From the NCBI GenBank assembly GCA_037481695.1, contig JBBFLE010000001.1, positions 128,989 to 192,988 of the forward strand: 64,000 bases of DNA. Direction: 5' to 3'. This stretch comes from a bacterium (GTDB lineage Bacteria > Desulfobacterota > Desulfocorpusculales > Desulfocorpusculum). The number at the start of each line of letters is the position of its first letter. The first letter of the stretch is position 1. The translations under genes were made by a program, and so were the position numbers. Under the pieces are notes generated by a model, which saw only the letters and a list, made by a program, of their open reading frames with translations, was not told the origin of the DNA and did no database searches. This document shows positions 8,548 to 44,060 of this stretch, piece by piece.

Positions 8548-8572
8548 GCAAAGGTGGTCAGGAGAAACAATC

Positions 8573-20899: not shown

Positions 20900-21220
20900 G
20901 GCTCGCTCTCTTGGCCTGGCTCAACAGCCAGCTCGGCTACTCAAGCAACCGCGAACTGCTGGAGGACATGAAGCAGGCCGACGAGGGCTTTGACGCTTCC
21001 GGGCGCAGTCACATCTACCATCGGCTCCTCTCGCGCGGCAGCAAGGTGCGAATCCCCCGAGGACCTGGCGCGTTACGATGACAACATCCGCGCGCACCTG
21101 GCGGCCATCAACGCCCGCCGTAGCCAGCCCATCACCCTGCTCTACTTCCAGTACCTGGCCTTCCTCTACACCGAAATCGTCCTTGCACCTAGATTTCATC
21201 TTTCACCGCCACCCAGCTGA
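20900..21220 (+). pseudogene. Frameshifted fragment of an unidentified gene (two adjacent frames: ...WLNSQLGYSSNRELLEDMKQADEGFDASGRSHIYHRLL... / ...DDNIRAHLAAINARRSQPITLLYFQYLAFLYTEIVL)
   Basis: Short ORFs without start or RBS lying between HepT and the DUF499 gene; family not recognised. Confidence 0.25.
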
Positions 21221-24200
21221 AGCTCTTCCTTTACCTTCTTCAGGATCTTGTTGGCCTCCTTAGCCGCCTCCGGCGGTGGGATTGTCTTTCCGTCTCCCAT
21301 CTCAATGCGAACAAAAAATCGGAACGGCGTATTCGCCTTGGCCTTAAGCTTCAGCAGGTCAGGAATAGCATCGCCCAGTTCCTGGATTTCAGAAGGCTCG
21401 AGCTCAGCACTCGCCATCAACACATTGGAAGGGGGTGGGGGTGGGGGCGGAGGCGGGACATCCAGCGGCACCTTGAGCTTTACAGACTGGGCCCCCGGGA
21501 AGTCGCAGGGCCAAGGACCGGATGCCTGGTCCAGCACGAGGAAGCGCGCCTGGAGAGCAGCCGTGATCACATCCCGAACGGTCTTCCACGGGAGCGTCTT
21601 ACCTGCTTTGACGGACAAGGCCGTAGCAACGGAAAGGGCCGAAGCCACACCATCTTTCCAAGCCGCCGGCAGGTTCTCCGGAAGAATCTCCGCAGCAGCG
21701 ATCACGGCTGGCGGCGGGCAGAGTTTCGACGTGGCGTTCAAGACGCCCGCCGGGATCGGCTCGCCCAGGATACTGGCTGGCCCCGAGAGCAGCCACAGCG
21801 CCCCGCTCTCAACGGCAAGGCCGATGGCCTTCTCCACCACTGCCTGCCCGGCCTTCGGAATCCGCATCGGCTCTTGGTAGCCTTCGCGTTCCACCTGCAC
21901 GACGGTCGAACCGCTGAAGTAACGGGTCACTGCGTCAACCGTGATCTCATCGGCAGACCACAGGCCCGGCAAATGTTTGGGTGCCAGGAGTGCAGGGGAA
22001 ATCTCCCCAAGCTCGGCGGCCTCCGGAAGGACGAGCTCAAGCGCCGGATCGTTCATCGCGTTCTCATCCGGCCTGGACATCCACCACGTCCGCACCGAGC
22101 CGTCGGGCCGGGTCAGCCGAAGCACGAAGGTTCCCCCCTCGCACCCGTTTGCAAGCGTGTCAAGGATGGCGCTGGAGCGAAGCATCTTCGGCAGATGCGG
22201 CAACTGCGCAAAGGCACCCGCCAGGTCCTTGACCCGCCGCGAGGTCTCGCCTGAGCGCCAGAGGTTATAAGGGCCATCGGGGAGAAGAGCCTCGGCCGTG
22301 ATGGCGGTATCCTGCACGCGCGACCGCTTATCGCTCTTGATGATGTTGAAGTGCGGGTCCTCCGTGACGGTGATCTTGAAGGCCTGCACTTCATCCTTCT
22401 CCGAGACAGTCACCACGATGCAATACGCCTGTTTGACCGCTTCGGGAATACGGGCTTTGGCCTTCTCGATGTTGATCTGGAGAGTCTCGGCCCGGGCGGG
22501 ATCGACGTTGCCGTCCTTTTGTTGCTTCTTGATCTCCTCGCGCACCTGCTCCCAGCCCAGGTAGTCGCGGGCCCTGGCCATTGCCAGCTCGAGGCCGTCG
22601 CGTGAGGGCACAAGCAGGATCACCGCGTTCCGGTAAACCCTCGGACGATCCGGCCCTGTTGTCTCGTCGATGAATCGCTTCGCCTCGGGGCTGGGCTTTC
22701 CTGATTCCGAAGCGGCGCCCGGACCCAAGACGGCGTAATGGAACGCGCCGTCATCTTCGATGTCCTTGGGCCGTGCGGGGAGCGTGTGGACACGAGCCCC
22801 CGCCGCGGAAGCGTTGGCCGTGAGAGCCTTAGTCTTGCTGATATCGTCCAGGAGTCTTGCCCGGACGACGTCCTCGGGGATATTCTTGGCGGCGATGGCA
22901 TGCATCTGCGTGAGATTGGGTCGGTTGCCCAGCCGCCACGTTGCGGGCAGTTGGCCTTCGGCCACGGCGGCGTAGAGGTCGTCGAGCCAGTAGCTCTCCT
23001 GCGCCCATCGGGCCAAGCCCTTTTGCAGCTCGATCTTGTCAGGCCTGGTAGAACCCAGAAGAACCAGGAGGTCCCGCGTTCTGGCCGTCTGACCGATAGG
23101 CTGGGAGTGAAGAAACGTCGCCACAACGGCCTGCTCTATCTCCCGGAACTTGAGACCGACCGATTCGTCCTGGATCCGTATCGCTTGGGCGAACTCGCTA
23201 TTCAGGATGCCGGTCCAGGCCTGCTTCTTCCCTTCCCACTCCTCGGTGTCGGCGACGGCGACCATCTCACGCAGCGACTCGGACAAGCCCTCGAAGCCGG
23301 GCGGGGAAAGGAACACAGCGGGCCCGATGAGCGGGCTCATGTCCCATTTTTCGGCTTGCCGGAGCGCCAAGGCGAACGTCCGCAGCACCCCGCGGGTTCG
23401 CTGGAACCGAGCGAGCTGCGTCCACTTGGAGTAAAGCACCTCGGTGAGATCGGGGTGGAATGGATAGCTCTTCAGGAACCGCTCCTCCGCCTCCGCACCC
23501 TGCTTGGCCGTCTGCTCGTCGACCCCCTGGATGCCTTTGAGGGCCGCCACCACGTGCTGGCGGAAAGATTCCCGATCCTTGAGCGACTCCGTCGTGAAGA
23601 ACCGTCGGCGCAGTACTTCGGCGATATCCTCCTTGACCACCGGTTCCACCGCTTCTTCGCGTTGCCGCTGGAAGATGTCATAGAGCTCGGCCTGGATCTC
23701 GCGGCCAAGCGTGTCGCTTTTACGCGGGTCTGTCGCCAGGAGCGACGCCACGAGGCAGCAGCGGTCCACCTTGGCCACGGCCTGCGTCAGGTACTGGAAG
23801 AAATTCACGAGCCGGGACCGCCACTCGGGATCCTGGGCGACCTTCTCGCGGGCGTACATCAAGACCTCGTCGACGAGGATCAAGGTCCCAAGCCCGTCCC
23901 TGGCTGGGAGTTCCAGGAGCTCCGCCAGGAGGTTCTCGGCGGGGGCCGAATCGCGTTCTTCCGCCTTGCCGTCGGCGTGCAGAAGCTTGAGTCCTTCATC
24001 GCCCGCGATCTGGTAGGCCAGGATGCTCCAGGGCTGCTTCAGGGTGCGCACCTTTCCCGCGGGGGAAGCGATTTCCATGCCCTTCTCGACGTCCAGCTTG
24101 TCGAAGCACAGCCCCGCCACGCGGCACTTGGGAGGCTTCTGGCCGATGGCCTGGACAAATTCCGCAACGGACGGAAGATTGGGCAGCTTGTCGGGATCGG

Positions 24201-24510
24201 TAACGAGGTGGCGAAGCGTGATCAGGGTATGGGTCTTGCCGCCCCCATAGGTGAGTTCCAACTGGCGGACGGCCTTGTCGTTCTTCCCGGCCAGCCGCAA
24301 AACCACGTCGCGCACGAGCTGGCGCAGGTTGTAGGTCGGGAAGGTAAGGGCGAAAAACTCCTCGGGCTTCTCGTAGATCGGGCGCTTGCCACGCTGCATC
24401 AGGACCTCGTAGAGGTCGGCGGCGAACATATGAAGCGGGAGTTCGCCGGAGCGCAGGTCCTCTCGCAGATTGACCACCTCGTGCCACGGCTTCCAAGGTA
24501 GCTTGGCCAT
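21196..24510 (-). CDS. DUF499 (BrxC/PglY-like) AAA+ ATPase, with a C-terminal poly-Pro linker plus ~80-aa tail
   Basis: MAKLPWKPWHEVVNLREDLRSGELPLHMFAADLYEV... plus TYGGGKTHTLITL P-loop is the canonical DUF499 N-terminus; start taken at the internal ATG 24510 (the ORF extends to 24606). Confidence 0.8.
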   Translation of the reverse strand: MAKLPWKPWHEVVNLREDLRSGELPLHMFAADLYEVLMQRGKRPIYEKPEEFFALTFPTYNLRQLVRDVVLRLAGKNDKAVRQLELTYGGGKTHTLITLRHLVTDPDKLPNLPSVAEFVQAIGQKPPKCRVAGLCFDKLDVEKGMEIASPAGKVRTLKQPWSILAYQIAGDEGLKLLHADGKAEERDSAPAENLLAELLELPARDGLGTLILVDEVLMYAREKVAQDPEWRSRLVNFFQYLTQAVAKVDRCCLVASLLATDPRKSDTLGREIQAELYDIFQRQREEAVEPVVKEDIAEVLRRRFFTTESLKDRESFRQHVVAALKGIQGVDEQTAKQGAEAEERFLKSYPFHPDLTEVLYSKWTQLARFQRTRGVLRTFALALRQAEKWDMSPLIGPAVFLSPPGFEGLSESLREMVAVADTEEWEGKKQAWTGILNSEFAQAIRIQDESVGLKFREIEQAVVATFLHSQPIGQTARTRDLLVLLGSTRPDKIELQKGLARWAQESYWLDDLYAAVAEGQLPATWRLGNRPNLTQMHAIAAKNIPEDVVRARLLDDISKTKALTANASAAGARVHTLPARPKDIEDDGAFHYAVLGPGAASESGKPSPEAKRFIDETTGPDRPRVYRNAVILLVPSRDGLELAMARARDYLGWEQVREEIKKQQKDGNVDPARAETLQINIEKAKARIPEAVKQAYCIVVTVSEKDEVQAFKITVTEDPHFNIIKSDKRSRVQDTAITAEALLPDGPYNLWRSGETSRRVKDLAGAFAQLPHLPKMLRSSAILDTLANGCEGGTFVLRLTRPDGSVRTWWMSRPDENAMNDPALELVLPEAAELGEISPALLAPKHLPGLWSADEITVDAVTRYFSGSTVVQVEREGYQEPMRIPKAGQAVVEKAIGLAVESGALWLLSGPASILGEPIPAGVLNATSKLCPPPAVIAAAEILPENLPAAWKDGVASALSVATALSVKAGKTLPWKTVRDVITAALQARFLVLDQASGPWPCDFPGAQSVKLKVPLDVPPPPPPPPPSNVLMASAELEPSEIQELGDAIPDLLKLKAKANTPFRFFVRIEMGDGKTIPPPEAAKEANKILKKVKEELQLGGGER
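21431..21457. repeat. G-tract GGGGGTGGGGGTGGGGGCGGAGGCGGG (C-strand encodes P9 in the DUF499 protein); potential G-quadruplex / slippage-prone hexamer repeat
   Basis: Read directly from the sequence. Confidence 0.7.
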
Positions 24511-24511
24511 G

Positions 24512-24889
24512 TCAATCCCCCTCTCGATCCGGTTGATATTCCCGAATGCGGTTGCGCTCGACGATCCAGAGCTTGCCTTTGATATCGTTCTGAGCAAGCC
24601 CTTCAATCAACGTACGGCAGCACGCCCAGAGGTCTTGGTCGGTCGGCTTGTGCGGAAGGCGTAAGACGGCGATGCCGCTGTATTCCCAAGGAGGGAAAAG
24701 GAAGGGATTGCTGAAGTCCAGGTCGAGCGTGACTAGACACCTACCCTCTGCCCGACAGGCGGTGATGAGCACGCGATCGCTGGCGGAGCAGAGGTTTTGC
24801 TGCGGAACGGTGGCGACGTCATGGCCCGCGGATCGGAACAGGCGTGCACCCCGTTCACCCAAGTTCTCATCGAGCTTGAGCTTCATCAT
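24512..24889 (-). CDS. DUF5615 (PIN-like, Mut7-C fold) putative toxin
   Basis: MMKLKLDENLGERGARLFRSAGHDVATV...DLDFS pattern typical of DUF5615; start at internal ATG 24889/24886. Confidence 0.65.
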   Translation of the reverse strand: MMKLKLDENLGERGARLFRSAGHDVATVPQQNLCSASDRVLITACRAEGRCLVTLDLDFSNPFLFPPWEYSGIAVLRLPHKPTDQDLWACCRTLIEGLAQNDIKGKLWIVERNRIREYQPDREGD

Positions 24890-25131
24890 TGATTCGCCGC
24901 CGGCAGCTCGACATATCGTTCGCGCGACATTTCGGCCCCATACGCAATGCAAGCTCGGATGTCGTCGTCGTCGATACCAGGGTAATTCTCGCGGATCTGA
25001 TCGAACGTCCAGCCGCTGGCCAGCAAATCCAAGATCAGCGACACCCAGATTCGGTGTCCCCGAATACAGGGCTTGCCGAAGCAAATATTCGGATCGATGG
25101 AGATGCGCTTCAACAGGTCTTCTCGGTTCAT
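24886..25131 (-). CDS. DUF433 putative antitoxin
   Basis: FGKPCIRGHRIWVSLILDLLASGWTFDQIRENYPGIDDDDIRACIAYGAE matches the DUF433 consensus; 4-nt overlaps on both sides. Confidence 0.7.
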   Translation of the reverse strand: MNREDLLKRISIDPNICFGKPCIRGHRIWVSLILDLLASGWTFDQIRENYPGIDDDDIRACIAYGAEMSRERYVELPAANQ

Positions 25132-28100
25132 GGACGATCCTCCTTGTTTGACGGAGTATCGGTGTCGTCGCCAAAAGTCAAGCCCAGCTGGCGATTTTCC
25201 TTCACCGCGCCCCTGGCCTGGACGTGGTTGCTCAGGGATTCGAGCAGGGAGCGCTCTTCGCTTCCGTGGGGCGAAAGCTCGATGAGCGACTGGAGGAGCC
25301 GCTTGAAAAGTTCTTGCCGGCGCAGTCCGTTGCCGTCGAGGTACTCGTCCACCTTGGCAAGATCGCCGGCCTTCCAGAGATGCATCAGGCGGTGCACGCG
25401 GTCGATGAGAGGGATCGGTTTCCCGGCCGGCGCCTCATAGCCAAGTGAACGTCTCTTACGCTGCGCCCACGTCTTGAGCTTCACCTTGCTCCCGGATTCC
25501 TCGAAAGTAGTAGCCGCGTCCTCGCCGCTTTCTTCCTCTTCTATCTCATCATCATCTTCAAGCGACGAGACGTCGCTTCTACTATAGCCGATGATGTCCC
25601 ACGTGTCGGCCAGCTCCTTGTCGGAGAGGCCACACGAGATCGCGTAGAGGATGCACGCGCCCGCCGGGGCTTCCTCGAGGCCGAAGTCGTGACGATGCAG
25701 AAGGTAGTAGGCGGTTGGATCGTCGAGAGTAGACGCGTCGTCTCGACGCGTATCTTCATGTTCGCTTCCACTCAGCACTCGGCCGACCACGAACTCCACG
25801 ACCATCCGCCGCACGTGGGCGAGGAACTCGCTCACCGTCATCAGGCCCGGCTCATTGGCCTTCTTGACCACGGGGTGCTTGCTGTAGGCCTCGAGCGCCG
25901 GACCCGTTGCCGCCCACACGAAGTCCGGCCCACGGATGCCCGCGTCCCAGAATTCGCGGAGCTTGGCGCGGATATTCCGACGCATCTCTTCCAGAACCTG
26001 GTTGTCCCAGCCGGGCTTCGAAAGTAGAAGCGGCGTCCCGCCGCTTTCATCCACGCGACGAGACGTCGCGTCTACGAACGTAGAAGCGGCGTCCTCGCCG
26101 CTTGAGATTACGCGATGAGACGTCGCGTCTACTCGCTTCTTGCAGACCAGCCAAACGGAGGAGGCGAGAGCAGAAGACGCCTTTGCACGCATCCTGGTGT
26201 TCATCTCCGTCTGGATGGGCCAGCTGCCGTCGACGACGAAACCCGATCGAACGAGTGCCGACACGAGGGCTTCCCATGCATCAGGCTGCTTGTTGGCGAA
26301 AACAACAACCATCTTGCCATCCGGTTTCAGTGCGTTCCTGCACGCCTGAAACGCACGCGCCATTCCCTCCTCATAAACGGCCTTCGACTTGGCCTTGTCG
26401 CCTCCGTGACGACTTGCGTCATCGATGAGTTCCCCGTCGTTTCTCTCGTGATTCCACTTGGGCGAAAGGGGGTCTCGAAATGCCCTGTCCAGGTCCAGAG
26501 AAAGACCGTTCAGCGAGCGCTTCAGCCATAGATAGAAAAAATCCATCAGATCCGAGTACGGAATCGCATCGTAGTAGGGCGGGTCCGTCACCACGGCGTC
26601 GTACTGGCCGGAACTGATCTCGAGGGCAGATCGGTTCTCCGCCACGGGCGCCTCGGCATCCGTCGAAGCGAGTAAAGCATGGTCGATACAGAGCGACACC
26701 CAGTTGAGCTGGGCGCAATACGCCGCGCCGACGACATTGATGACTGCCACCTCGGCGAAGTCCCACGTAATCGGCAAAGCGAAGCGAGTAAAGGTATTCC
26801 CGACAAACTCGCCGGAAATAACCCATCGGCAAGTCGTTGAATTGTAGTCTGCAACCTTGTCGTTGAGTATGGCTAGGTAACCTATGACAGCCTCACGCCA
26901 TTCCGACGGATAGCCAAACCGCAACATCTCAGTTGCCGCCTCCCTCGTCCACTTCACGAACGTCCCCAGCGCCAGAAGCTGGCGGGGGGTGAAGAGATCC
27001 CTCCATCGCGTGAAGCCGTAGCCGTCTACGGAAAAAGCTCGGCTTGCTCCGATTCCTCCCCTGGGAGTCGGCTCCACGGGCAACCCGAACGGAATCTGCG
27101 CGAAGAGGTCGGGCAATGCCTTCTCTGCCTGACCCGCTTTCTCTATTTCCTCTCGCTCCGGCAGCCGGTACTCCTTGCCGTCTTGTCCTTCCACGACCAC
27201 GGCGGTCATGACCGAGCCGAGACGCCCGGCCCGACCCTCCAGTCGAATGTCCTCCATCGTCATGATCGTGCCGCAGCAGGGGCACTTGGCGCCAGAGCGC
27301 GACATCGTTCCCGCCCCGAGGCGCTTGTCGTGCTCGCGGCGCTGCGCTGCGTTCCCGCCTTTTACGGGAACGTTTGTCTCGATTCCAAAGACCACAGTAG
27401 ACGCGACGTCCCGTCGCGTTGGGGCGGCACTGTCTTCCGGCTTGCCCTTGGGATTATTCCGAATGTATTGCCTGACTCGTTCCATTTGAGCAGGGCTTCT
27501 AATAATGTGGTCAAAGGATTCTTTCTGCCATACGGTTCCGCTGCGCCCCAGTTTCCTGTTGATCTCGTGCGCCGTGTAGGACTTCCATGAATGAAGGATC
27601 TCGGACAGTTCATGCCCAGCCAGGGGGGTCACCAAAGCATGGACATGGTTGGGCATCACCACATGTTCATCGAGAAGGTAGCGTTCTCCATCAAAGTGCC
27701 GCAGAGCACTTTCGACAAGTGCCTTGATTTCTGGTTTGGCAAGGATGCATTCGCCGTAACCGGCGTCTAGCCATTCCTGAAAACGTTGGGGAAAAAGTTG
27801 ATAATACTCGCGACGTGTCTTTTCGTCGTGAGGTTCAGGATGTTTCTCCTGCCACGCCTTGCGTTCCTCTTCCCATTGCAGCAACTTCTCTTGAGGCATG
27901 GAATCTGCTAGACGGAAGGTCACGAAATAGGTTGCACCGTCCTGGCGCCAATGGGGAAGGTTGCCGGAAAGGTTGCCAATGGGGGCTTCAGGATCGAAGT
28001 AATGCAGAAGCGCCGTCTCGACGCTTCTCGCACGCGGCGAGGACGCCGCGTCTACTATTACTTGCATCGTGAGGAGCACGCGCTTTTTTTCCTTCTTGCA

Positions 28101-29138
28101 CAGCCAGCGGGTCTTGAGGAGCGGGATCGTCGCGCGGCAGTTCTTGCAGGTCACCGTGCGCGCCCAGAGGTAGGCGACCGTCGGCTTCGCCACCCATCGG
28201 GGATTGCGTTTGTCTGCCAGGTACTCCGCGCTGAACTGGGCATTCAGCCGGTCAATGTCCGGCTTCCCATCTTCCTTGAGGGGAACCAGGCGCGTGGGCT
28301 GCTTCTCGTAAGGTAGACGCGACGTCCCGTCGCATAGAAAGCGGCGGGACGCCACTTCTACCGGCTCGAACTCGGCGTAGGTCGGGTAGAACCTGGCAAG
28401 TTCCCGTCGGGCGCGGTCGAGAACCCACTGGCCCCACGCTCGGACGTGCCAGGCGAGGTCTGCTTCCAAAGGAGACGCGACGTCCCGTTGCATGGCCTGT
28501 TTAAAAAGCGACAAGACGTCGCTTCTACACCGCGGGTGCGCCTTGTAAAAGGCCTTCATGAACTCCTCGTTCTCGAGGATGAAGTCCGGCAGAGGATGGG
28601 TCTTCCCGGCCAGCTTCTGCGGATATTCGAGCGTGCATTTGAGGATGAACCAGGCGACCGGGTTGATGTCCACGGCCGTCACCTCGCACCCGAGGCGCAT
28701 GGCCTCCAGCGGGATCGCACCGCCGCCCGCGAAGGGGTCCAGCACTTTGGGTGGGCGCCCTCCGTAGGCCTTGCGGATCTCCTGCCGGAACCACTCCAGC
28801 AGCTCCTTGTTCTCGGTCTCCCGGCCCCAGTGCAGAATGCCTCCCTCGGTGGCTTCCTTCTCACGCTCGACGACCCGCCCGCCGGGCATCTTCTTGCGCT
28901 CGATCTTTTTCACTACTTTGCCACCGATTTTCTCGCAGAGCTTCTGGCGTGCTTCGGGCGTTCCGGGATCAGGCAGGAGCGTGGCGATGAGGGCGGCCCG
29001 GCACGCGGCCAGCGGCCGCCGCGCTGGCCAGATGTGGAGCGTCGAGATGTGCCCATGCCGCACGTTCTTCTCGTGGACGGAGTCCAGAGAAGCCTGCTTC
29101 AGCGGGAAGGCATGCTCGATCAGGCGAGATTTGTCCAT
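25128..29138 (-). CDS. DUF1156-family N6-adenine DNA methyltransferase (1336 aa) carrying an in-frame Y1/RAYT transposase domain and multiple in-frame REP-derived segments
   Basis: Canonical DUF1156 N-terminus (EHAFPLKQASL...HIWPARRPLAACRAAL); FxGxG motif (VLDPFAGGGAIP); Zn-ribbon KCPCCGT; catalytic DPPYYD motif; AGGA RBS 6 nt before ATG 29138. Confidence 0.85.
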   Translation of the reverse strand: MDKSRLIEHAFPLKQASLDSVHEKNVRHGHISTLHIWPARRPLAACRAALIATLLPDPGTPEARQKLCEKIGGKVVKKIERKKMPGGRVVEREKEATEGGILHWGRETENKELLEWFRQEIRKAYGGRPPKVLDPFAGGGAIPLEAMRLGCEVTAVDINPVAWFILKCTLEYPQKLAGKTHPLPDFILENEEFMKAFYKAHPRCRSDVLSLFKQAMQRDVASPLEADLAWHVRAWGQWVLDRARRELARFYPTYAEFEPVEVASRRFLCDGTSRLPYEKQPTRLVPLKEDGKPDIDRLNAQFSAEYLADKRNPRWVAKPTVAYLWARTVTCKNCRATIPLLKTRWLCKKEKKRVLLTMQVIVDAASSPRARSVETALLHYFDPEAPIGNLSGNLPHWRQDGATYFVTFRLADSMPQEKLLQWEEERKAWQEKHPEPHDEKTRREYYQLFPQRFQEWLDAGYGECILAKPEIKALVESALRHFDGERYLLDEHVVMPNHVHALVTPLAGHELSEILHSWKSYTAHEINRKLGRSGTVWQKESFDHIIRSPAQMERVRQYIRNNPKGKPEDSAAPTRRDVASTVVFGIETNVPVKGGNAAQRREHDKRLGAGTMSRSGAKCPCCGTIMTMEDIRLEGRAGRLGSVMTAVVVEGQDGKEYRLPEREEIEKAGQAEKALPDLFAQIPFGLPVEPTPRGGIGASRAFSVDGYGFTRWRDLFTPRQLLALGTFVKWTREAATEMLRFGYPSEWREAVIGYLAILNDKVADYNSTTCRWVISGEFVGNTFTRFALPITWDFAEVAVINVVGAAYCAQLNWVSLCIDHALLASTDAEAPVAENRSALEISSGQYDAVVTDPPYYDAIPYSDLMDFFYLWLKRSLNGLSLDLDRAFRDPLSPKWNHERNDGELIDDASRHGGDKAKSKAVYEEGMARAFQACRNALKPDGKMVVVFANKQPDAWEALVSALVRSGFVVDGSWPIQTEMNTRMRAKASSALASSVWLVCKKRVDATSHRVISSGEDAASTFVDATSRRVDESGGTPLLLSKPGWDNQVLEEMRRNIRAKLREFWDAGIRGPDFVWAATGPALEAYSKHPVVKKANEPGLMTVSEFLAHVRRMVVEFVVGRVLSGSEHEDTRRDDASTLDDPTAYYLLHRHDFGLEEAPAGACILYAISCGLSDKELADTWDIIGYSRSDVSSLEDDDEIEEEESGEDAATTFEESGSKVKLKTWAQRKRRSLGYEAPAGKPIPLIDRVHRLMHLWKAGDLAKVDEYLDGNGLRRQELFKRLLQSLIELSPHGSEERSLLESLSNHVQARGAVKENRQLGLTFGDDTDTPSNKEDRP
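25509..25583. repeat. REP doublet (REPIN-like) with expanded acidic spacer, in frame in the methyltransferase (encodes SRSDVSSLEDDDEIEEEESGEDAATTF)
   Basis: GTAGTAGCCGCGtccTCGCCGCT ... AGCGACGagaCGTCGCTTCTAC. Confidence 0.6.
25729..25751. repeat. Solo REP hairpin GTAG-ACGCGTCG-tct-CGACGCGT (encodes TRRDDAST)
   Basis: Perfect 8-bp stem preceded by GTAG. Confidence 0.65.
26024..26132. repeat. Two tandem REP doublets (REPINs, 52-53 bp each, period 56 bp): GTAGAAGCGGCG-tcc-CGCCGCTT/spacer/ACGCGA(C/T)G-aga-CGTCGCGTCTAC; in frame, encodes VDATSHRVISSGEDAASTFVDATSRRVDESGG
   Basis: Read directly; the two REPs in each doublet are inverted (GTAG ... CTAC). Confidence 0.75.
27397..27419. repeat. REP hairpin GTAG-ACGCGACG-tcc-CGTCGCGT immediately 3' of the RAYT domain (encodes TRRDVAST)
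   Basis: Read directly; orientation inverted relative to the REP on the other side of the RAYT. Confidence 0.7.
27425..27965 (-). mobile_element. IS200-like Y1 transposase / REP-associated tyrosine transposase (RAYT) domain, embedded in frame in the methyltransferase
   Basis: LPHWRQDGATYFVTFRL..., HuH motif MPNHVHALV, ...GTVWQKESFDHIIRS..., RQYIRNNP (catalytic Tyr region); no own start codon; flanked by inverted REPs at 28005-28055 and 27397-27419. Confidence 0.75.
28005..28055. repeat. Degenerate REP plus REP (CGCGGCG-agga-CGCCGCG-TCTAC) immediately 5' of the RAYT domain (encodes IVDAASSPRARSVETALL)
   Basis: Read directly. Confidence 0.6.
28313..28362. repeat. REP doublet GTAGACGCGACG-tcc-CGTCGCA/tagaa/AGCGGCG-gga-CGCCACTTCTAC in the N-terminal half of the methyltransferase
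   Basis: Read directly. Confidence 0.6.
28471..28528. repeat. Degenerate REP doublet (GGAGACGCGACG-tcc-CGTTGCA ... AGCGAC-aag-ACGTCGCTTCTAC) in the N-terminal half of the methyltransferase
   Basis: Read directly. Confidence 0.5.
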
Positions 29139-29162
29139 GCATCATCCTCGCGTGCCTACTTG

Positions 29163-29663
29163 TTAGGGTCTGCCGTCCACTTCAGACATCCTGATGGCAT
29201 CGTGTCCTATAGGGAACACATATGCTGCCGCGTGCCAATCTCTATTGGGATCGCCGCCCATCAGCAGAAGTACCGGTTCGGGACACCTCATCGCATTATT
29301 GGTGGCAAATGACTTCATTTGTTCATGGTCTATTTCGCTAGGGATAGGGGCGGCCAAAGGATGGTAATGCCACTCGCCAAGGTAATACTGTTTCCGACGC
29401 CAGAGACGGTTCAAGAACGCCTGGAGACCTCGCACGCCGCGGTTGAAAAATACTCTGCCTCGTCTGGAATCTGCCGGAGGTCCAGACACATCGGTTACGA
29501 TAGCCCAATCGTGCTTGTCAGTATAGTAACCAACGAGAATTCCCCCTGTCTCCATATGCCTTGATGCCTTACAGAATGCGATTATCTTGTCCATTGTCAT
29601 TCCTTGCACAGACAGTCCAAACCGCGCATCAGGCGTTCTAAACTCAAGGGTTCTCATGTTCAT
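29163..29663 (-). CDS. cap3: CBASS Cap3-like JAB/JAMM isopeptidase
   Basis: E...HYHPLAAPIPSEID = HxH-x7-S-x2-D JAMM motif; 166 aa; directly downstream of the E1/E2 gene. Confidence 0.75.
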   Translation of the reverse strand: MNMRTLEFRTPDARFGLSVQGMTMDKIIAFCKASRHMETGGILVGYYTDKHDWAIVTDVSGPPADSRRGRVFFNRGVRGLQAFLNRLWRRKQYYLGEWHYHPLAAPIPSEIDHEQMKSFATNNAMRCPEPVLLLMGGDPNRDWHAAAYVFPIGHDAIRMSEVDGRP

Positions 29664-29665
29664 TA

Positions 29666-31555
29666 CTATTGGACCAATTTGATTCCCGGTGGGAACTCAT
29701 CCTTCTGCTCCTGTTCAAACACGCACAATCGAGGAGAACGTGGAGGATTAGTCATCCATGAATCAATGCATTTCACGGCGATGGAACTCAACAACCAGAT
29801 ATCATCCGAGCGAGCGGGAAAGACGGGGTGCCAGCATCCGAGCCCTTCGGGGGGCAACTCGAATCCCTTGTGCTCTTTCAACTCTTTGTCGAGCCACGGG
29901 GTCAGCATGGCCGAGAAATCATGATGGGGGAACCTCTCGCCACATGCCCCGAATAAAAATAACCGTCGGGCTTGAAGACCTGTCGAGATACTCACAAACA
30001 GTTTGTTGCCCTCCCAAGGAAAGGTGCTCAATCGGAAAGCAGCACGGTCATCACCAGTACAGTCGATGACGATAGTGCACTCCGCCATTTTCCGTTGCTC
30101 AACCTCAGTGGTGTTGTGCACGTATCGTCTGACCCCCTCGGCGGTAACGTGAGGAGAGATGCTGTTCAATCGGGCCGCCAACGACTCTGCTTTTGGTGTC
30201 TGTATCTCTTGGATGGAGAGCGTGTGACGACACAAGTTGCCCACTTCAAGGATGTCTCCGTCTACCACAACTATTCTCTGACAGCCTTCGCGAACGAGTA
30301 TCTCAGCCACCGAGGATCCTATAGCCCCAGCGCCAACTATCAGAACCTTGGCACCCGTTAGTGAAGATGATGCTCGGCCTCTTGTCCGTATCTGTTGCTC
30401 CGACCAGTTCCTTGAGATGATCCAGTCAATGCTGCTGCTATCCGAAAGAACGGTACGGGCGTCGTTCATTGCGAAGTTTCCCTCCTTGGGGCGAAAGCCT
30501 TTCACCTTGCCATGTGTAAGCACAGGCAGCTGGAGTGCCTGCCAGTGGTACATCGCGGGTTCGCCCCCAATGGTAGTTGGTATGGGGAAGCCGACAAGTA
30601 GAATGTGCCGTTTGCCGTCACGAAAGTCTCGAGCAAGGTCGAAGAACAGAGGATTGAAGTCAACGCCCTGTTCCTTCATTGCTGCTCGCAGTTCGCCGAA
30701 GGTTGCGGGGGCTTGCCAAGGGTGGATCACCGGTATACGAGGTAGGCGGATCCACATCGCGGAGAGTTTGCGCGCAGTCCCATGCCTTAACAAGGCTCCG
30801 TACTCCACTTCCCGAATGGTTTTTCCTCGTGCATTTGAGAAGGTGGTGACGGCATACCACGCGTTGACGCCATCAGGTTGAACCACGGTGGCAACCCCAC
30901 ATACCTCGACCGTCTCTTCCTGCCAGAACCGAAAGGAGTCCTCGTCTTCGATGAAGCCTAGTGTAGTGTGTGATCGTCGCGGAAAGTCTGGCAATTCGAA
31001 CGGTTCGCCCACCTCGGCTACTCGACCTGCTGCCGCAGCCTCTAACCACTCCTTAGCTCGCATTACGTGCCACCGCAACCGCTCTTCAGGCGAGGTGGGT
31101 TCGATATCGTAGGCCCGCCGCCCCGCGTAGCGCAGCGATGTCCGGACGCATATCTTCCCCTCTCGCCACGGGACATCAGGATTCCCCTCAGCGTTGTGTG
31201 ACTGATGGGGAAATGTGTGTTTGATCCCCCCGTCTTTGGCAGGATACAGTTCAATATCGCCCCATGGATAGTCGTCATCTGCAACGATGAACCACACCGA
31301 CTTGGCAGGAATGAGACCGGCAGGCTTTACCGTCAAACGACATCGCAGCGCCCATTTCTTGAATAGCTCATTCCACACCCAGTCTTCCAACAGTTCGCAG
31401 AAAGGGAGTCCATCCAGCGCTCGTCGTGCTCGCAACAAACTATCTGGTGGTTGGAATTTCATATTGTCAAGCAAAGCGTCCGCCTCCGATGATGGAGACA
31501 TTCTTCCTTGGCGTATACCCACCCGGCTTGTCGGGCGACTCACCGTTACCGTCAT
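29666..31555 (-). CDS. cap2: CBASS Cap2-like E2/E1 fusion (ubiquitin-conjugation-like)
   Basis: C-terminal ThiF/E1 Rossmann KVLIVGAGAIGSSVAEIL...VVVDGDILEVGNLCRH; N-terminal E2-like half; start ambiguous (ATG 31555, 31501 or 31462; the ORF runs to TTG 31591), overlapping the CD-NTase 3' end. Confidence 0.7.
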   Translation of the reverse strand: MTVTVSRPTSRVGIRQGRMSPSSEADALLDNMKFQPPDSLLRARRALDGLPFCELLEDWVWNELFKKWALRCRLTVKPAGLIPAKSVWFIVADDDYPWGDIELYPAKDGGIKHTFPHQSHNAEGNPDVPWREGKICVRTSLRYAGRRAYDIEPTSPEERLRWHVMRAKEWLEAAAAGRVAEVGEPFELPDFPRRSHTTLGFIEDEDSFRFWQEETVEVCGVATVVQPDGVNAWYAVTTFSNARGKTIREVEYGALLRHGTARKLSAMWIRLPRIPVIHPWQAPATFGELRAAMKEQGVDFNPLFFDLARDFRDGKRHILLVGFPIPTTIGGEPAMYHWQALQLPVLTHGKVKGFRPKEGNFAMNDARTVLSDSSSIDWIISRNWSEQQIRTRGRASSSLTGAKVLIVGAGAIGSSVAEILVREGCQRIVVVDGDILEVGNLCRHTLSIQEIQTPKAESLAARLNSISPHVTAEGVRRYVHNTTEVEQRKMAECTIVIDCTGDDRAAFRLSTFPWEGNKLFVSISTGLQARRLFLFGACGERFPHHDFSAMLTPWLDKELKEHKGFELPPEGLGCWHPVFPARSDDIWLLSSIAVKCIDSWMTNPPRSPRLCVFEQEQKDEFPPGIKLVQ

Positions 31556-32603
31556 CCTTCTTTGCCGGTGGGTCCGGGAACCGGTCACCAAAGAGCTGTC
31601 GCCACAGAATCACGCTCTCGTGCAGGTCTTCTTCGTTGTATGCTCGGCGGGCTAACTCGGCTGCCTCCGTGATGTGCTCGTGGAAGGCGACGAAGTCATC
31701 GGGAGACACTCGCCCTAATACATTGTGCTCTGGAACACCATGGTCAGGAACCCTTGGTGTTCGTTTCTGCTCAACATCTGTGCGGTATACGTCGCGAATG
31801 CCTTCGAGGGCTGAGACCACACCAGCGGCGACGGATTGAATACCATCCGCGCAGTTTATGCAGCAAAGGTGCTCTAGGGGATAGCTCTTGGGGTACTTTG
31901 GCTCCCGGCGTTGCGTGGTTCGCCACCATTTCAGGCACTTCACAACGTCGAGGTAGTAGCCATTGCATGCTGCATTCTTTCTTTGCGTTGCTTCAATCTG
32001 AGCCAATGGATGTGTCTTGTGCCATTCCTGTGCTTCTCGGTCAGGAATCCAGAGGGGCTCGTTTCGCCATTGTTCATCCCCCGCCTTCTCCAATATCGCG
32101 CCTAGCGATTTGCCAGACCGCCACGACAGGCTGAGCCTCCAGTCACGAGCTTCTTCCAGTGTTTGGTCGGTTGAGACGCTCGCAGACTTGACGAGCTGTT
32201 TCAGCGCCTCGCTAGGTGCGGATGTCGGCACGAGGTCCAGTTGGACATAAGATAGTTCAATGCCCCACGAGCGGCCTTGCGGCTTGTACTTGCCCTTGTA
32301 GTGCTTCTCCAAGAAGGGCCTGAAGCGTTCCAAGGCCTCACGAGGTGTGATCTTGTTTCGGTCGAGATTCGTTACGATGATAATGTCGACATCGGATTTC
32401 CTCCGGTCTTCGAACGGTCTGATCGCCGTGGAGCGCCTATAGCTGCCCTGAAGGAAGGTCGCCACAACGATGTCCTTCAAATCTTCGTCCTTGAGGAGCC
32501 GGTCCCTGAGTGTGCTGTGCCCGTTCTTACAATCCTGGACTTGGCTCTCCGTGATCCTGATGTTCCTCAAGAAATCGATGAAGTACGATGGTACATTACT
32601 CAT
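31467..32603 (-). CDS. CD-NTase (cGAS/DncV-like nucleotidyltransferase) of a type II CBASS
   Basis: GSYRRSTAIRPFEDRRKSDVDIIIV (GS...[DE]h[DE] NTase active-site motif); 378 aa; C-terminus ...IIGGGRFA; ATGA start/stop overlap with the effector gene. Confidence 0.75.
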   Translation of the reverse strand: MSNVPSYFIDFLRNIRITESQVQDCKNGHSTLRDRLLKDEDLKDIVVATFLQGSYRRSTAIRPFEDRRKSDVDIIIVTNLDRNKITPREALERFRPFLEKHYKGKYKPQGRSWGIELSYVQLDLVPTSAPSEALKQLVKSASVSTDQTLEEARDWRLSLSWRSGKSLGAILEKAGDEQWRNEPLWIPDREAQEWHKTHPLAQIEATQRKNAACNGYYLDVVKCLKWWRTTQRREPKYPKSYPLEHLCCINCADGIQSVAAGVVSALEGIRDVYRTDVEQKRTPRVPDHGVPEHNVLGRVSPDDFVAFHEHITEAAELARRAYNEEDLHESVILWRQLFGDRFPDPPAKKDDGNGESPDKPGGYTPRKNVSIIGGGRFA

Positions 32604-34171
32604 TCCATGTCCCCCTTATGTTTTCCACGCGTTCCAAAACTCGAGCCGCAACTAATAGGGACGCTGATAGACTGATAATATGCAGCACCGCCTGCATCGA
32701 GATCATGCTCGTACAGCACCAGCTTGCCGAGAACGTGCGCCAACCGCCCAAGCAGGAACATTATGCCGTTGGGGGCCGCGAAGAACACGTGCAATACGCC
32801 GCCTTGTCCGCCGCACAACTCCCTGACGGTGGCAACGAGACACTCGGCCAAGAGATGGGCATGAGTTCCATCCTTAACCGATGAGGGGCCTGCAGACGGG
32901 AGGAGGAAGTGAACGATGCTCCCGGCTGTCTTGACGTTCAGTCTCACGTACTTCAAGACGTCCTTCTCGATGTTATGTGTGGCGCTGATTGCAAGGACCG
33001 TATCCGTGGTGTTCGCCGGTTCCAGTTTGATAACGCTCACATCCCATTTCGGGTAGTGTTTCTCGATTTCGGGCGAAACGTGTGCTTTTCTCCATATATG
33101 CCGCCCTGCAAGGCTGTCCTGCACGGGCACGATGTCCACGCCAGATTTTGGGTTCAGCGCCCATCCCGCAATGAATGCGATGCTACCGTGCGTCTGGAGG
33201 CGGATATGGAATGAGCGCGAAGGCTTCACATTCACATCGAGAAAGCGAATCACCGCAGGGGCTATGATCTCATTCCACGTATTGGGTACTCTTGGAAACC
33301 GCCCGTTGAAATGGCGAAGCAGGCAGAGTGTCGCGTCGGTTTCGTCTTCAAGGTTCTCGGCATACCGCCAGAAGCTGCGGATGCCGATCCTTGTGGCATC
33401 AGGCTCTTCAATCGCCCGCCCCGCCCAGAGAGCACATTCGCGGGAGAGTTTTTCAAGGGAATCTCTTGTAAGAACTCTGTCTCCTCTTTCAATTAGTTTT
33501 CGCCCAAGATCATCGTACGGGTTTATGGGGTTGCCCGGCTGGACCGGAACGAGCCCTACCAAACGGAGGCGAAGATTTAGGTCTTCGCCCAATTTTTCCA
33601 ATGTCGGCCCCTGATGCACGCGAACAAGGCGCAGCAAACGCTGCAGTTCCTCGTCTGACCGGAGGCCTAAATGTCTCTTCCACGCCTCACGCACTTTCCC
33701 CATCCTCGACTTAGGGCCGCCTCGAGACAACACATCCCATCGCAGGCTTCCGTCGGTCAGGCTGTGAAATGCGCCCATCTCGTTGTCGGGATGGACCTGC
33801 CACGGTGAAAAGATGTTGAACCGACAGTTACAGCCTTTTGATGCGCATTTGCGTTGCGCGTTCAAAAGTCGTTGCAGAATGGATACTGAGTTGGCGTTCA
33901 CAAACGAGGGATCCATCATGTTTTGCCATGTGAAGGCCCCGTTGCTTTTAACGTGAAACTTGACTTGGTAGAAATCTGCGTGAATGGACTCACCCGCATC
34001 GGAATAGCCGCTATAACGGACCACCACGTCGTCCAGAGATTTTGCCTCATCGCTCTCAATCTCCACGCTTACAACTTTCGTCTTGTCCTCGAGCAGACGG
34101 CATGCCTGCAACCAGAAGAAACGTATCTGATAGTCGTCGCCCTGAAGCCGTGCTGCAACTGCTCTAGCCAT
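32600..34171 (-). CDS. cap4: Cap4-like CBASS effector: N-terminal DUF4297/REase-fold nuclease plus C-terminal SAVED domain
   Basis: Start at MARAVAARLQGDDYQIRFFW (GGAGG upstream; 2-nt gap after the helicase stop); D...QVK nuclease motif; C-terminus ...LHVFFAAPNGIMFLLGRL typical of SAVED. Confidence 0.6.
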   Translation of the reverse strand: MARAVAARLQGDDYQIRFFWLQACRLLEDKTKVVSVEIESDEAKSLDDVVVRYSGYSDAGESIHADFYQVKFHVKSNGAFTWQNMMDPSFVNANSVSILQRLLNAQRKCASKGCNCRFNIFSPWQVHPDNEMGAFHSLTDGSLRWDVLSRGGPKSRMGKVREAWKRHLGLRSDEELQRLLRLVRVHQGPTLEKLGEDLNLRLRLVGLVPVQPGNPINPYDDLGRKLIERGDRVLTRDSLEKLSRECALWAGRAIEEPDATRIGIRSFWRYAENLEDETDATLCLLRHFNGRFPRVPNTWNEIIAPAVIRFLDVNVKPSRSFHIRLQTHGSIAFIAGWALNPKSGVDIVPVQDSLAGRHIWRKAHVSPEIEKHYPKWDVSVIKLEPANTTDTVLAISATHNIEKDVLKYVRLNVKTAGSIVHFLLPSAGPSSVKDGTHAHLLAECLVATVRELCGGQGGVLHVFFAAPNGIMFLLGRLAHVLGKLVLYEHDLDAGGAAYYQSISVPISCGSSFGTRGKHKGDME

Positions 34172-34173
34172 AT

Positions 34174-37791: not shown

Positions 37792-37823
37792 GGTATTCTC
37801 ATCGCCGAGTGACAATATAAAAA

Positions 37824-37852
37824 ATTATATCATATGCAATAGTGAGTGTCAA
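37824..37852 (-). promoter_or_regulatory. Consensus sigma70 promoter TTGACA-N17-TATAAT driving the helicase/CBASS/MTase/ATPase gene string
   Basis: Minus-strand reading TTGACActcactattgcatatgaTATAAT, about 30 nt upstream of the helicase start; AT-rich with ATATAA/TTATAT inverted repeat. Confidence 0.55.
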
Positions 37853-42536: not shown

Positions 42537-42537
42537 C

Positions 42538-44051: not shown

Positions 44052-44060
44052 GGCGACCTT

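Follow-up and report, generated by a model that had tools for sequence, protein, structure and literature searches.

How a defence methylase came to be read through a transposase domain, and what keeps the two in one frame, is the question raised by the hmaB gene of this Desulfocorpusculum contig. We call the whole 64-kb stretch of DNA analysed the window. The initial annotation had described a DUF1156 methylase with a domain of the REP-associated tyrosine transposase (RAYT) type between two inverted REPs, and had offered three alternatives: insertion of a REPtron with its frame selected or retained, domestication of the domain as part of the methylase, or a fusion that supplies expression for the RAYT.

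A transposase domain in the reading frame of hmaB

As that annotation claimed, hmaB is one uninterrupted frame of 1336 codons with an ATG start and zero internal stops, and an independent Logan assembly gave the identical protein, with neither stop nor frameshift. The methylase parts assigned to this frame (FAGGG, zinc ribbon and DPPY) were all located, and FAGGG and DPPY were invariant across 22 aligned sequences (N6-adenine methylase motifs I and IV intact).

25128..29138, minus strand: hmaB::RAYT, DUF1156 N6-adenine methylase with nested RAYT, single ORF of 1336 aa
28953..29111, minus strand: DUF1156 N-terminal domain, residues 10–62 (Pfam, E 1e-17)
28719..28733, minus strand: methylase motif I, FAGGG, residues 136–140
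27273..28148, minus strand: zinc ribbon, knuckles bracketing the insertion (homologue alignment, motif positions)
28137–28148, minus strand: zinc knuckle CKNC, residues 331–334
27423..28004, minus strand: RAYT / Y1 HUH domain, residues 379–572 (Pfam, NCBIfam, fold model, GC3)
27630–27656, minus strand: HUH motif MPNHVHALV, residues 495–503
27450–27473, minus strand: Tyr motif RQYIRNNP, residues 556–563
27273–27284, minus strand: zinc knuckle CPCC, residues 619–622
26574–26585, minus strand: methylase motif IV, DPPY, residues 852–855

The proposed identity of the inserted domain held up. Both catalytic motifs were found, and Pfam Y1_Tnp matched HmaB residues 488–562 above its cut-off (32.1 bits against 23). 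The best NCBIfam match of the block was REP_Tyr_transpos, at 71.6 bits and thus below the cut-off of 80, and the NCBIfam IS200 model scored 23.8 bits, far under its cut-off of 55. By sequence the block had no match in the PDB; its fold was judged from a structure model and a fold search. In the AF2 model the RAYT core reached pLDDT values above 90 and the REP-encoded flanks stayed below 50, the segments on either side of the domain being modelled as low-confidence linkers. The top Foldseek match of the modelled RAYT was 4er8_A (E 1.3e-5, probability 1.0), the E. coli RAYT–REP complex, followed by IS200/IS605 TnpA structures. With the latter the block shares the HUH/Y1 fold and presumably the single-strand hairpin chemistry; unlike them, it shows no IS structure and no tnpB, and it has a helical insert of ~45 residues that is absent from IS200 TnpA. 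Third codon positions set the block apart as well: GC3 was 0.43–0.63 in the RAYT as against 0.8–0.95 in the adjoining host codons, and since this drop is confined to codons 361–585, the RAYT unit is bounded by its REPs.

The RAYT had been said to lack a start codon and ribosome-binding site of its own. This is true of residues 359 to 405, where no in-frame start codon occurs, residue 406 already lying in the first strand of the domain; however, the host part just upstream holds two in-frame starts, V354 (GTG) and M358 (ATG), both preceded by a AAGAAGGA stretch of Lys codons. Without its own start, the RAYT is readable only within the 1336-aa protein or an N-terminally shortened form of it. The Shine–Dalgarno-like appearance of AAGAAGGA would suit a separate RAYT product, arising through internal initiation at GTG354/ATG358 and then cleavage, through protein splicing or through excision from the RNA. 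Yet the same stretch encodes a conserved host motif, CKKEKKRVLLTM, also present in RAYT-less homologues. Moreover, the block has no stop codon of its own and the frame is open to the end of hmaB, so that initiation at either codon would still give a RAYT fused to ~760 C-terminal methylase residues. We found no Hint or intein Pfam family in the 1336-aa protein and, because the junctions are variable REP peptides, no conserved Cys/Ser...His-Asn residues at them; an Rfam scan of 24000–38000 revealed no intron or other RNA family, and a scan for sigma-70-like promoters, a weak negative, found none 5′ of the RAYT on the coding strand. Separate release is thus most improbable, and the mature protein apparently retains the insert on flexible linkers.

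Recurrent insertion and purifying selection

Comparison with homologues showed the clean insertion that had been anticipated. In 99 of the 120 best HmaB homologues the RAYT is missing and the sequence ...KKRVLLTME-PNxxKT-GVVFGIE... runs uninterrupted across the site, the strands LLTME and VVFGIE being joined by a turn of six residues; the insertion is clean against RAYT-less homologues with 75–77% identity over the aligned positions. By this alignment, the RAYT block takes the place of a surface hairpin turn between the zinc-ribbon knuckles, which supports a true insertion rather than a native DUF1156 domain. Accordingly split is the match to the PADLOC HmaB profile (E 6e-110), which comes in two stretches with the RAYT insert between them. 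The NCBIfam equivalog DUF1156_antiphage, which models a different subfamily, gave 152.6 bits against a cut-off of 1000.

The arrangement is not the one-off that it had seemed: a RAYT occurs in at least 21 HmaB protein clusters (90% identity), in three versions and at two sites. In the type-c homologues the RAYT itself lies at the codon position that we call site 2 below. Another homologue carries a GIY-YIG nuclease fold inserted in frame, and among 201 distant DUF1156 genes from a plasmid search none had a RAYT.

Selection has acted on the block as on its host. Its dN/dS was calculable for just two pairs, dS being otherwise saturated, and came to 0.055 and 0.087, about as in the HmaB core; these values (~0.06–0.09) indicate purifying selection. 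Among the 21 HmaB-nested RAYTs, a simple pattern recognised the HUH motif in all and the Tyr motif in 18. These results bear on whether the locus stems from a chimeric assembly or from a dead insertion still free of stops. The source is a metagenome-assembled genome and GC3 of the RAYT is unlike that of the host gene, as an artefact or decaying pseudogene would have it; but the protein is identical in two assemblies, the same open architecture recurs in at least 21 clusters despite saturated synonymous sites, dN/dS is far below 1, and ~230 stop-free codons at 52% GC are, by our own estimate, very unlikely by chance. We regard this origin as scarcely credible.

REP copies within the Hma operon

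hmaB lies between two other core genes. PADLOC recognised HmaA (1e-152) and HmaC (3e-72) beside HmaB, and Pfam placed SNF2/Helicase_C/NOV_C, DUF1156 and DUF499 on the operon. With its three core genes together, the operon is assigned by sequence to the Hma / type-1 BREX-related systems.

34174..37815, minus strand: hmaA, HTH + SNF2 helicase + C-terminal PD-(D/E)XK (NOV_C) nuclease (Pfam, PADLOC)
29163..34171, minus strand: cargo between hmaA and hmaB, type II CBASS; lower GC3, zero REPs
21196..24510, minus strand: hmaC, DUF499 ATPase, zero REPs (Pfam, PADLOC)

The cargo encodes a SAVED-nuclease effector, a CD-NTase, an E1-E2 and a JAB protein. Over the N-terminal 200 residues, operon proteins are ~80–92% identical between MAGs that carry different phylum labels, and the cargo was different in every locus compared.

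The inverted REPs reported at 28032–28055 and 27397–27419 are both there. The description as a pair was nevertheless incomplete, as the 5′ flank is a doublet and there are 12 further in-frame copies at six other sites of hmaB and two in hmaA.

34418–34470: REPIN of hmaA, in frame, between the D (GFDLLS) and EVK motifs
28471..28528, unstranded: site 1, degenerate REP pair, in frame, residues 204–223
28313..28361, unstranded: site 2, REPIN, in frame, residues 260–275
28004..28055, minus strand: 5′ REP doublet (REPIN) at the RAYT, GTAGACGCGGCGTCCTCGCCGCGT and an inverted, slightly degenerate partner ending CTTCTGC
27397..27419, plus strand: 3′ REP at the RAYT, GTAGACGCGACGTCCCGTCGCGT, inverted relative to the 5′ REP, encodes TRRDVAST
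26024..26132, unstranded: site 4, four REPs (two REPINs), 33 extra codons, residues 1003–1038
25729..25751, plus strand: site 5, single REP (TRRDDAST), 5′ stub of a deleted partner
25506..25582, unstranded: site 6, REPIN with a 30-nt acidic spacer, residues 1187–1211

Altogether, the window has 16 REP copies: 14 in hmaB, distributed over seven in-frame sites, and two in hmaA. Allowing up to three mismatches, GTAGACGCGACGTC occurred 16 times in the window compared with 2.1 expected, and none of 100 shuffles reached 16: the copies are not due to chance. On the coding strand, GTAGACGCGGCGTCCTCGCCGCGT occupies 28032–28055; the doublet to which it belongs encodes VDAASSPRARSVETALL and adjoins CAT TAC TTC GAT (HYFD). 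Pairing of two inverted REPs as a REPIN was seen at sites 2, 4 and 6, at the 5′ flank of the RAYT and in hmaA. Hairpins at the RAYT flanks had folding z-scores of −3.3 to −4.6, the region 28305–28367 folds into one long hairpin (−18.8 kcal/mol, z −4.1), and the REP has a stop codon in just one of its six frames.

Eight loci together contained ~60 perfect-stem REPs in hmaB or hmaA and one intergenic copy inside an operon, with zero in cargo genes, hmaC or flanks. An 11-mer repeat map (threshold 4 copies) had missed the REPs of L002 and L006, which a tagged-hairpin finder recovered. Confinement of REPs to the operon is a local result, for the 64-kb window and the homologous loci; elsewhere in the source genome, of which ~580 kb belong to the same contig, there may be a free RAYT and dispersed REPs.

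Comparison of these loci shows that REPs are both kept and replaced. Four-fold degenerate third positions were identical at 0.50–0.80 in REP codons compared with 0.32–0.47 in the rest of the gene; by this measure REP DNA is kept beyond coding need. REP stems covary around a constant TCY loop. The 3′ flank of the RAYT has one to four REP copies across five homologues. Site 2 holds an inverted REPIN at the same codon position in L002 and L005 and is empty in L003 and L004; site 4 is empty in L003–L005 and carries a different REP family in L002, having been filled independently by two families.

Such turnover could in principle serve to diversify the system, RAYT and REPs cutting and rejoining DNA to exchange methylase specificity cassettes or the hmaA–hmaB cargo. 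HmaB is indeed mosaic: P0004 and P0013 hardly differ outside a segment between about residues 633 and 1000, and the right edge of this swapped segment lies near REP site 4. The locus-specific cargo and a RAYT-unit GC3 that differs from the host gene in two of the eight loci would agree with exchange too. Against this, the swapped segment has no REP at its left breakpoint, the cargo junctions have none either, RAYT-less HmaB genes have the same mosaic specificity region, and there is nothing to diversify in LeuRS and similar hosts of the domain (see below). We consider this role very unlikely.

Nested and free relatives, and what maintains the element

More than 120 genome blocks, representing many phyla, contained the same 21-nt REP pattern. 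Four of the retrieved blocks had RAYT genes 47–60% identical to the nested one with adjoining REPs, and the best protein-database matches were at most 70% identical and RAYT-sized (~190–260 aa). In the PVC group and other phyla, the same RAYT family and the same REP are free-standing and genome-wide. A rough neighbour-joining tree, star-like and used solely for this point, interleaved nested RAYTs with free ones.

Counting hosts only where the ORF had a recognised domain, we found this family nested in type IIG methylases, LeuRS, XseA (ExoVII), a Mur ligase and a DinG-like helicase. Nesting in LeuRS extends over 118 clusters, cultured Verrucomicrobia among them, and at least 11 of 52 long nested representatives are type IIG methylases. 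Methylase and restriction genes are in excess among the hosts. Both HUH His residues are invariant among the 52 representatives, and HUH and Tyr motifs are both present in 117 of the 118 LeuRS-nested RAYTs. Short peptide repeats, differing between lineages, stood on both sides of 12 of 12 inspected nested RAYTs; in the one LeuRS genome inspected there were only one clear REP-like hairpin and a possible degenerate partner. Stop-to-stop ORFs spanning REPs in GC-rich blocks were mostly spurious, 21 of 28 having no Pfam match. Two candidate restriction-gene hosts were weak: in P0182 hsdR is split and the RAYT ORF is fused to its C-terminal domain only, and in P0195 the RAYT is truncated and its PglX-like host gene disrupted.

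Domestication remains to be weighed. A co-opted HUH/Tyr nuclease would be a working part of the defence methylase, perhaps by nicking or binding invader DNA in single-stranded or hairpin form or by assisting in loading of the complex, with the REPs as leftovers. Purifying selection on the block and its retained catalytic motifs speak for co-option, as do repeated gain by defence methylases (three HmaB versions and at least 11 type IIG methylases among the 52 long representatives) and the in-frame GIY-YIG domain, another nuclease fold, of one homologue. But a defence role would make no sense in LeuRS, XseA, Mur ligase and other housekeeping enzymes that harbour the same family; the nested RAYTs form no single specialised clade, being interleaved with free REP-associated ones in the rough tree; wherever they occur, cognate REPs accompany them, conserved yet subject to turnover; 99 of the 120 best HmaB homologues have no such domain; and HmaA has its own nuclease domain in every locus examined. 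Taken together, co-option is unlikely, if less so than the other alternatives discussed above.

The reading that we consider probable is that of a REPtron nested in frame and in sense orientation in hmaB and translated as a passenger domain on REP-encoded linkers. Among the alternatives originally offered, the evidence favours insertion with a frame kept by selection and expression supplied by the host over domestication, and this reading needs no benefit to the host. The nested RAYT would still be active as a REP nuclease/ligase, chiefly in cis, and would seed and turn over REPs in coding sequence close by, in hmaB and hmaA, where only copies in an open frame and a tolerant loop would survive. 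The host promoter would supply its expression; the element would be protected from loss because imprecise deletion would destroy the methylase, and it would pass from genome to genome with a defence operon that is horizontally mobile. Action in cis is suggested solely by the positions of the REPs. hmaC is as near to the RAYT as hmaA and yet REP-free, which cis action alone does not explain. Nor does this reading account for the excess of methylase and restriction genes among hosts. Long retention of catalytic residues, clearest in LeuRS, fits a function useful to the host as well as a selfish one.

More tentatively, and short of even confidence, we suggest that a whole RAYT lineage lives as non-splicing in-frame passenger domains with their catalytic residues kept, mainly in restriction/BREX-type methylases but in LeuRS, ExoVII, a Mur ligase and helicases too, that nesting is an evolved, intein-like strategy of persistence, and that the Hma RAYT populates its operon with REPs in cis. 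Inteins and in-frame homing endonucleases are likewise nuclease-type elements in frame in conserved, hard-to-delete genes, with host signals and recurrent sites; unlike them, the hmaB insert lacks a Hint domain, splice-junction residues and any sign of removal.

RAYTs have been described as single-copy, free-standing 'domesticated' transposases with extragenic REPs, mostly inherited vertically (PMC5581495), and the main survey of the family left out such long proteins as fusions or annotation errors. The hmaB block resembles a REPtron/RAYT (TnpA_REP, E. coli YafM; PDB 4er8) in its HUH and single Tyr motifs, 4er8 fold, inverted GTAG REPs and REPINs. It differs in being read inside a 150-kDa host protein and not from a free gene, in having its REPs, in the DNA available, in the coding sequence of two neighbouring genes instead of between genes, and in travelling with a horizontally mobile operon. 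In-frame GTAG (or GTGG) REPs and REP dimers are known from functional genes, often of DNA-handling enzymes, where they encode 8–30 extra residues (Di Nocera et al, 2013; PMC3733652). These intragenic REPs, together with Rickettsia palindromic elements, are a close parallel to the hmaB copies; the in-frame inserts which that study describes are REPs only, whereas hmaB has 14 copies at seven sites plus a RAYT. Its text, searched for 'fused' and 'in-frame', mentions no transposase read in frame, and it contains neither 'methyl' nor 'restriction' and does not discuss defence genes. The operon matches published Hma / type-1 DUF499-centred BREX-related systems (PADLOC; PMC12839542) in its three core genes and the variable auxiliary genes inside the locus, but the accounts of methylase architecture published for them mention no transposase/HUH domain or intragenic repeats. 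We found no published study of a RAYT nested in frame in host proteins.

The window thus presents a RAYT with intact motifs that can be read only from within a defence methylase, and methylases are the commonest hosts of nested RAYTs. Proteins of this kind are named by their host part only or thrown out as fusions or annotation errors, and their REP-encoded linkers inflate defence proteins and can break family models, as in the two-piece PADLOC match of HmaB. Because the family is also nested in an essential gene, LeuRS, in cultured Verrucomicrobia, REP cutting, action in cis and the need of the host for the domain are directly testable. If nesting is indeed a strategy of persistence, the lineage would be expressed through its host genes, would resist deletion and, in defence operons, would be transferred between phyla.

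The Hma operon and its methylase gene

The 4-kb open frame described in the initial annotation as a DUF1156 methylase (25128–29138, minus strand) comprises 1336 codons, with an ATG start and no internal stops, and Pfam places DUF1156 at residues 10–62 (E 1e-17). All the motifs that had been quoted for it (FAGGG, CKNC...CPCC, MPNHVHALV, RQYIRNNP and DPPY) were found in the ORF. Gene order and HmaB protein were identical in a Logan assembly made independently from a sequencing run, and NCBI has the same protein on a bacterial MAG contig of 641,648 bp. The neighbourhood was assigned by PADLOC to the Hma system, as follows.

Features of the Hma locus
21196–24510: HmaC, DUF499 ATPase (PADLOC)
24512–25131, minus strand: toxin-antitoxin-like DUF433 and DUF5615/PIN_10 pair, cargo in the hmaB–hmaC interval
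25128–29138, minus strand: HmaB, DUF1156 methylase with RAYT (PADLOC, Pfam)
29163–34171, minus strand: complete four-gene type II CBASS in the hmaA–hmaB interval (SAVED-endonuclease effector, CD-NTase, E1-E2/Cap2 and JAB/Cap3)
34174–37815: HmaA, HTH, SNF2 helicase and C-terminal NOV_C/PD-(D/E)XK nuclease (PADLOC)

The order hmaA, variable cargo, hmaB::RAYT, variable cargo, hmaC was found in all seven homologous loci that we fetched, in which different genes fill the hmaA–hmaB slot: SLFN_AlbA_2/HATPase_c_4, AAA_14/DUF4143, a CbiA-like ATPase, a protein kinase, or OLD-TOPRIM with UvrD. GC3 is lower in the CBASS cargo of the window (0.53–0.65 versus 0.78). A recent survey, in which Hma is renamed the type-1 DUF499-centred BREX-related system, divides the methylase into a helical DUF1156 domain and a core of N6-adenine methylase type, into which a large specificity insert enters beyond strand 2; a transposase or HUH domain is not mentioned in its account of that protein.

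Immediately downstream of hmaC lies a small toxin-antitoxin-like pair, NTP_transf_2 and HepT-like (20162–20810, plus strand). The genes flanking the island (1107–3389, 4949–10306 and 40905–55347) encode 4-hydroxybenzoyl-CoA reductase-like enzymes, phenylacetate-CoA ligase, caprolactamase/acetophenone-carboxylase-like subunits, methylmalonyl-CoA mutase and CoA transferases, and suggest that the source is an anaerobic aromatic-compound degrader. This anaerobic aromatic-compound/CoA metabolism is also a weak hint that the source organism lies outside the PVC group, in which case the operon and its REPs would have come by transfer.

A RAYT domain and REPs within the reading frame

The block nested in HmaB is a genuine RAYT belonging to a widespread REP/RAYT family. 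The Y1 transposase domain proposed for it was recognised by Pfam Y1_Tnp at residues 488–562 (32.1 bits, cut-off 23); the top NCBIfam match was REP_Tyr_transpos (71.6 bits, just below its cut-off of 80), and the IS200 NCBIfam model gave only 23.8 bits. In an AlphaFold model of residues 340–640, computed from a 103-sequence alignment, pLDDT was above 90 in the RAYT core and below 50 in the REP-encoded segments on either side. Searched against the PDB, this model best matched 4er8_A, a complex of the E. coli RAYT with a REP hairpin; structures of IS200/IS605 TnpA ranked next.

In agreement with the initial annotation, alignment of homologues identified the block as an insertion. HmaB proteins devoid of RAYT (1070–1110 aa, 75–77% identity over aligned positions) are continuous across the site, where they read ...CKKxxKRVLLTME-PNxxKT-GVVFGIE..., a strand-turn-strand flanked by both Cys knuckles of the zinc ribbon. 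Three elements take the place of this turn in the window: the RAYT domain, a REP doublet ahead of it (encoding VDAASSPRARSVETALL) and an inverted REP behind it (encoding TRRDVAST). The codons CAT TAC TTC GAT (HYFD) directly adjoin the final bases of the 5' REP, and M(N)YFD is the N-terminus of free RAYTs of the same family. Independent translation signals are absent for the RAYT: its proposed lack of a start is borne out by residues 359–405, which contain no in-frame ATG, GTG or TTG, the nearest start codons being the host's V354 and M358 only.

The two REPs reported to bound the domain are located at 28032–28055 and 27397–27419 and are mutually inverted. The canonical unit is tagged with GTAG and has a stem of 8 bp and a TCY loop. 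Stems of different copies are distinguished by paired changes (ACGCGACG/CGTCGCGT and AAGCGGCG/CGCCGCTT; in other lineages, for example, GGCAACCG/CGGTTGCC), with a constant loop, and the units folded as single-stranded DNA with z-scores of −3.3 to −4.6 relative to shuffled controls. We counted 16 copies of a 14-nt REP core (≤3 mismatches) in the window versus 2.1 expected, a number reached in 0 of 100 shuffles; 14 REPs fall in hmaB, 2 in hmaA and 0 in the other ~56 kb. In-frame REPs or REP doublets occupy six more sites of the hmaB ORF and one site in hmaA, where a REPIN, or inverted REP doublet (34418–34470), encodes VDATSRRVTSSGEDAPSTF and separates the Asp motif (GFDLLS) of the predicted PD-(D/E)XK nuclease from its EVK motif.

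Conservation and turnover in the HmaB family

PF06634 and PF01797 occurred together in 21 clusters among the best 120 HmaB homologues, with labels that include Syntrophaceae, Deltaproteobacteria and Lentisphaeria MAGs; some carry the JGI pipeline name 'adenine-specific DNA methylase/REP element-mobilizing transposase RayT'. By a simple pattern, these nested RAYTs keep the HUH motif in 21/21 cases and the Tyr motif in 18/21. The HmaB alignment distinguished three versions: in (a) the RAYT is long and occupies the window's site; in (b) it is shorter, ~49% identical, and occupies that site too; in (c) it is ~52% identical and lies at site 2 (residues 260–275). At site 2 the window carries a REPIN alone; in version (c), a REPIN occupies the site at which the window has its RAYT. 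Each version has its own REP sequences, likewise translated in frame. In two of the loci (L007 and L008) the REPs of hmaB and hmaA are GTGG-tagged hairpins with the GTCCC loop found elsewhere. REPs are locally confined to hmaB and hmaA: across eight loci, ~60 perfect-stem copies lie in one or other gene and one between hmaB and hmaC; the cargo genes, hmaC and the 10-kb flanks have none.

L008 has a different in-frame repeat, of tandem GGAGACGCGGGGACACGGAGAC-type units, in hmaA and hmaB alike (4142–5082 and 13494–13692). The HmaB homologue P0034 has a GIY-YIG nuclease domain (PF01541) in frame past IRKAYG, just ahead of methylase motif I (alignment columns 170–262), a second kind of nuclease housed in the HmaB family.

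The RAYT block is under purifying selection. Among five type-(a) genes, dS exceeded 1 or was undefined (saturated), dN of the block was 0.07–0.23, and dN/dS, where computable, was 0.055 and 0.087, with similar values for the methylase core. REPs are both maintained and variable. At four-fold degenerate third positions, identity was 50–80% in REP codons versus 32–47% in the remaining gene, indicating that the REP DNA itself is maintained or has lately been renewed. Copy number at the RAYT 3' flank was 1, 2, 3–4, 4 and 4 in five homologues. The site 2 REPIN of the window is opposite in orientation to that of L002 and L005 at an equal codon position, and is missing from L003 and L004; at site 4 (residues 1003–1038) four REPs are present in the window only, and L002 has a different REP family there.

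GC3 in the window drops from 0.8–0.95 to 0.43–0.63 over codons 361–585, which correspond to the REP-bounded unit. A RAYT-versus-host mismatch was also seen in L004, and the remaining six loci differ by ≤0.07. This compositional mismatch suggests that the unit may be replaceable as a cassette, from REP to REP. Nested type-(a) RAYTs and free RAYTs were intermingled in a rough NJ tree. Separately, the HmaB proteins P0004 and P0013 are near-identical save for one wholly different cassette (window residues ~633–1000) covering the specificity region and catalytic half; judged from the alignment, such mosaic alleles suggest that cassettes may be exchanged among HmaB alleles.

Nesting as a habit of the RAYT family

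A 21-nt REP pattern derived from the window was found in more than 120 genome blocks among the matches listed, with many blocks per genome in some cases. Their record labels include Planctomycetota, Verrucomicrobiota, Kiritimatiellae, Lentisphaerae, Myxococcales and other delta-proteobacteria, Acidobacteria, Hydrogenedentes and others. Among the matches listed, RAYT genes 47–60% identical to the nested block adjoin REPs in four blocks, and only one block is another Hma locus; in the protein database, identity to the nested block is at most 70% for the closest RAYT-sized proteins listed. A random sample of REP-bearing blocks yielded nine host genes with a recognisable domain and REPs deep inside the ORF, six of them methylase or restriction genes (Eco57I-like, N6_N4 methylase, MmeI-like, HsdS, HsdR::RAYT and HmaB). 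The HsdR case (L103:4316–8000, Proteobacteria MAG JAJZRU010000001.1), on one of the four blocks with a RAYT next to REPs, is a type I restriction operon whose RAYT shares its reading frame with the C-terminal region of HsdR (EcoEI_R_C). This RAYT is itself broken up by an in-frame REPIN, and the adjacent hsdS has a REPIN in its central conserved region, at the position where P0224 has a RAYT. Several RAYTs of 200–240 aa (P0130, P0136, P0152, P0157, P0211 and P0217) bear the JGI label 'type I restriction enzyme R subunit', which may have been transferred from HsdR::RAYT fusions.

Members of this RAYT family nest habitually, and the nesting recurs across hosts. A HMMER search over 1.84 billion cluster representatives returned 964 proteins (E ≤ 1e-30), and 52 of the best 150 were at least 500 aa long, a share that may overstate nesting if the longest member is preferred as representative and long proteins are over-represented; at least 300 aa was reached by only 4 of 120 matches listed in a 90%-cluster search. 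The RAYT is internal in most of the 52, and the two His of the HUH motif are invariant in 52/52. The commonest hosts are MmeI/Eco57I/N6_Mtase-type methylases (at least 11 of the 52), and others include leucyl-tRNA synthetase (LeuRS), exonuclease VII large subunit, a Mur ligase and a DinG-like helicase. Short peptide repeats, whose sequences vary by lineage, lie either side of the RAYT in 12/12 proteins inspected.

GTAG REPs in frame within genes are known already: they were described chiefly from genes of DNA repair and replication, are most abundant in Opitutus terrae, a verrucomicrobium, and include a GTGG tag variant (PMC3733652). The RAYT literature emphasises single-copy genes and vertical inheritance (PMC5581495). 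We did not find RAYT and DUF1156 in one paper, or the LeuRS/IS200/Verrucomicrobia case, in a search whose coverage excluded most subscription journals, and titles and abstracts of papers on RAYT with restriction-modification or fusion/methyltransferase/defence held no such case.

The nested domain is probably an active REP nuclease/ligase on flexible REP-encoded tethers. The E. coli RAYT of 4er8 is reportedly a monomer, and a monomeric RAYT would be well suited to an internal position in a protein. The nested domain may act preferentially in cis, with selection retaining only those REP copies that keep the frame in tolerant loops; of the six frames of a REP, just one contains a stop (G-TAG). 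Benefits to the element would be host expression, protection through the cost of imprecise deletion, and transfer with the operon.

For LeuRS, 118 of the best 120 clusters show the nesting, with the RAYT right behind the editing domain and both catalytic motifs retained in 117/118. This set includes cultured Haloferula, Luteolibacter and Roseibacillus, one of which has a complete 5.5-Mb genome. The LeuRS of the verrucomicrobium Roseibacillus persicicus CP151838 (L130:10001–13210) has a nested RAYT whose HUH and Tyr motifs are intact. Upstream lies one clear REP-like hairpin (CACAGGCG-TCC-CGCCTGTG), and downstream a possible degenerate partner. This essential gene appears to have harboured the insertion stably for a long time, in a cultured organism that is open to experiment.
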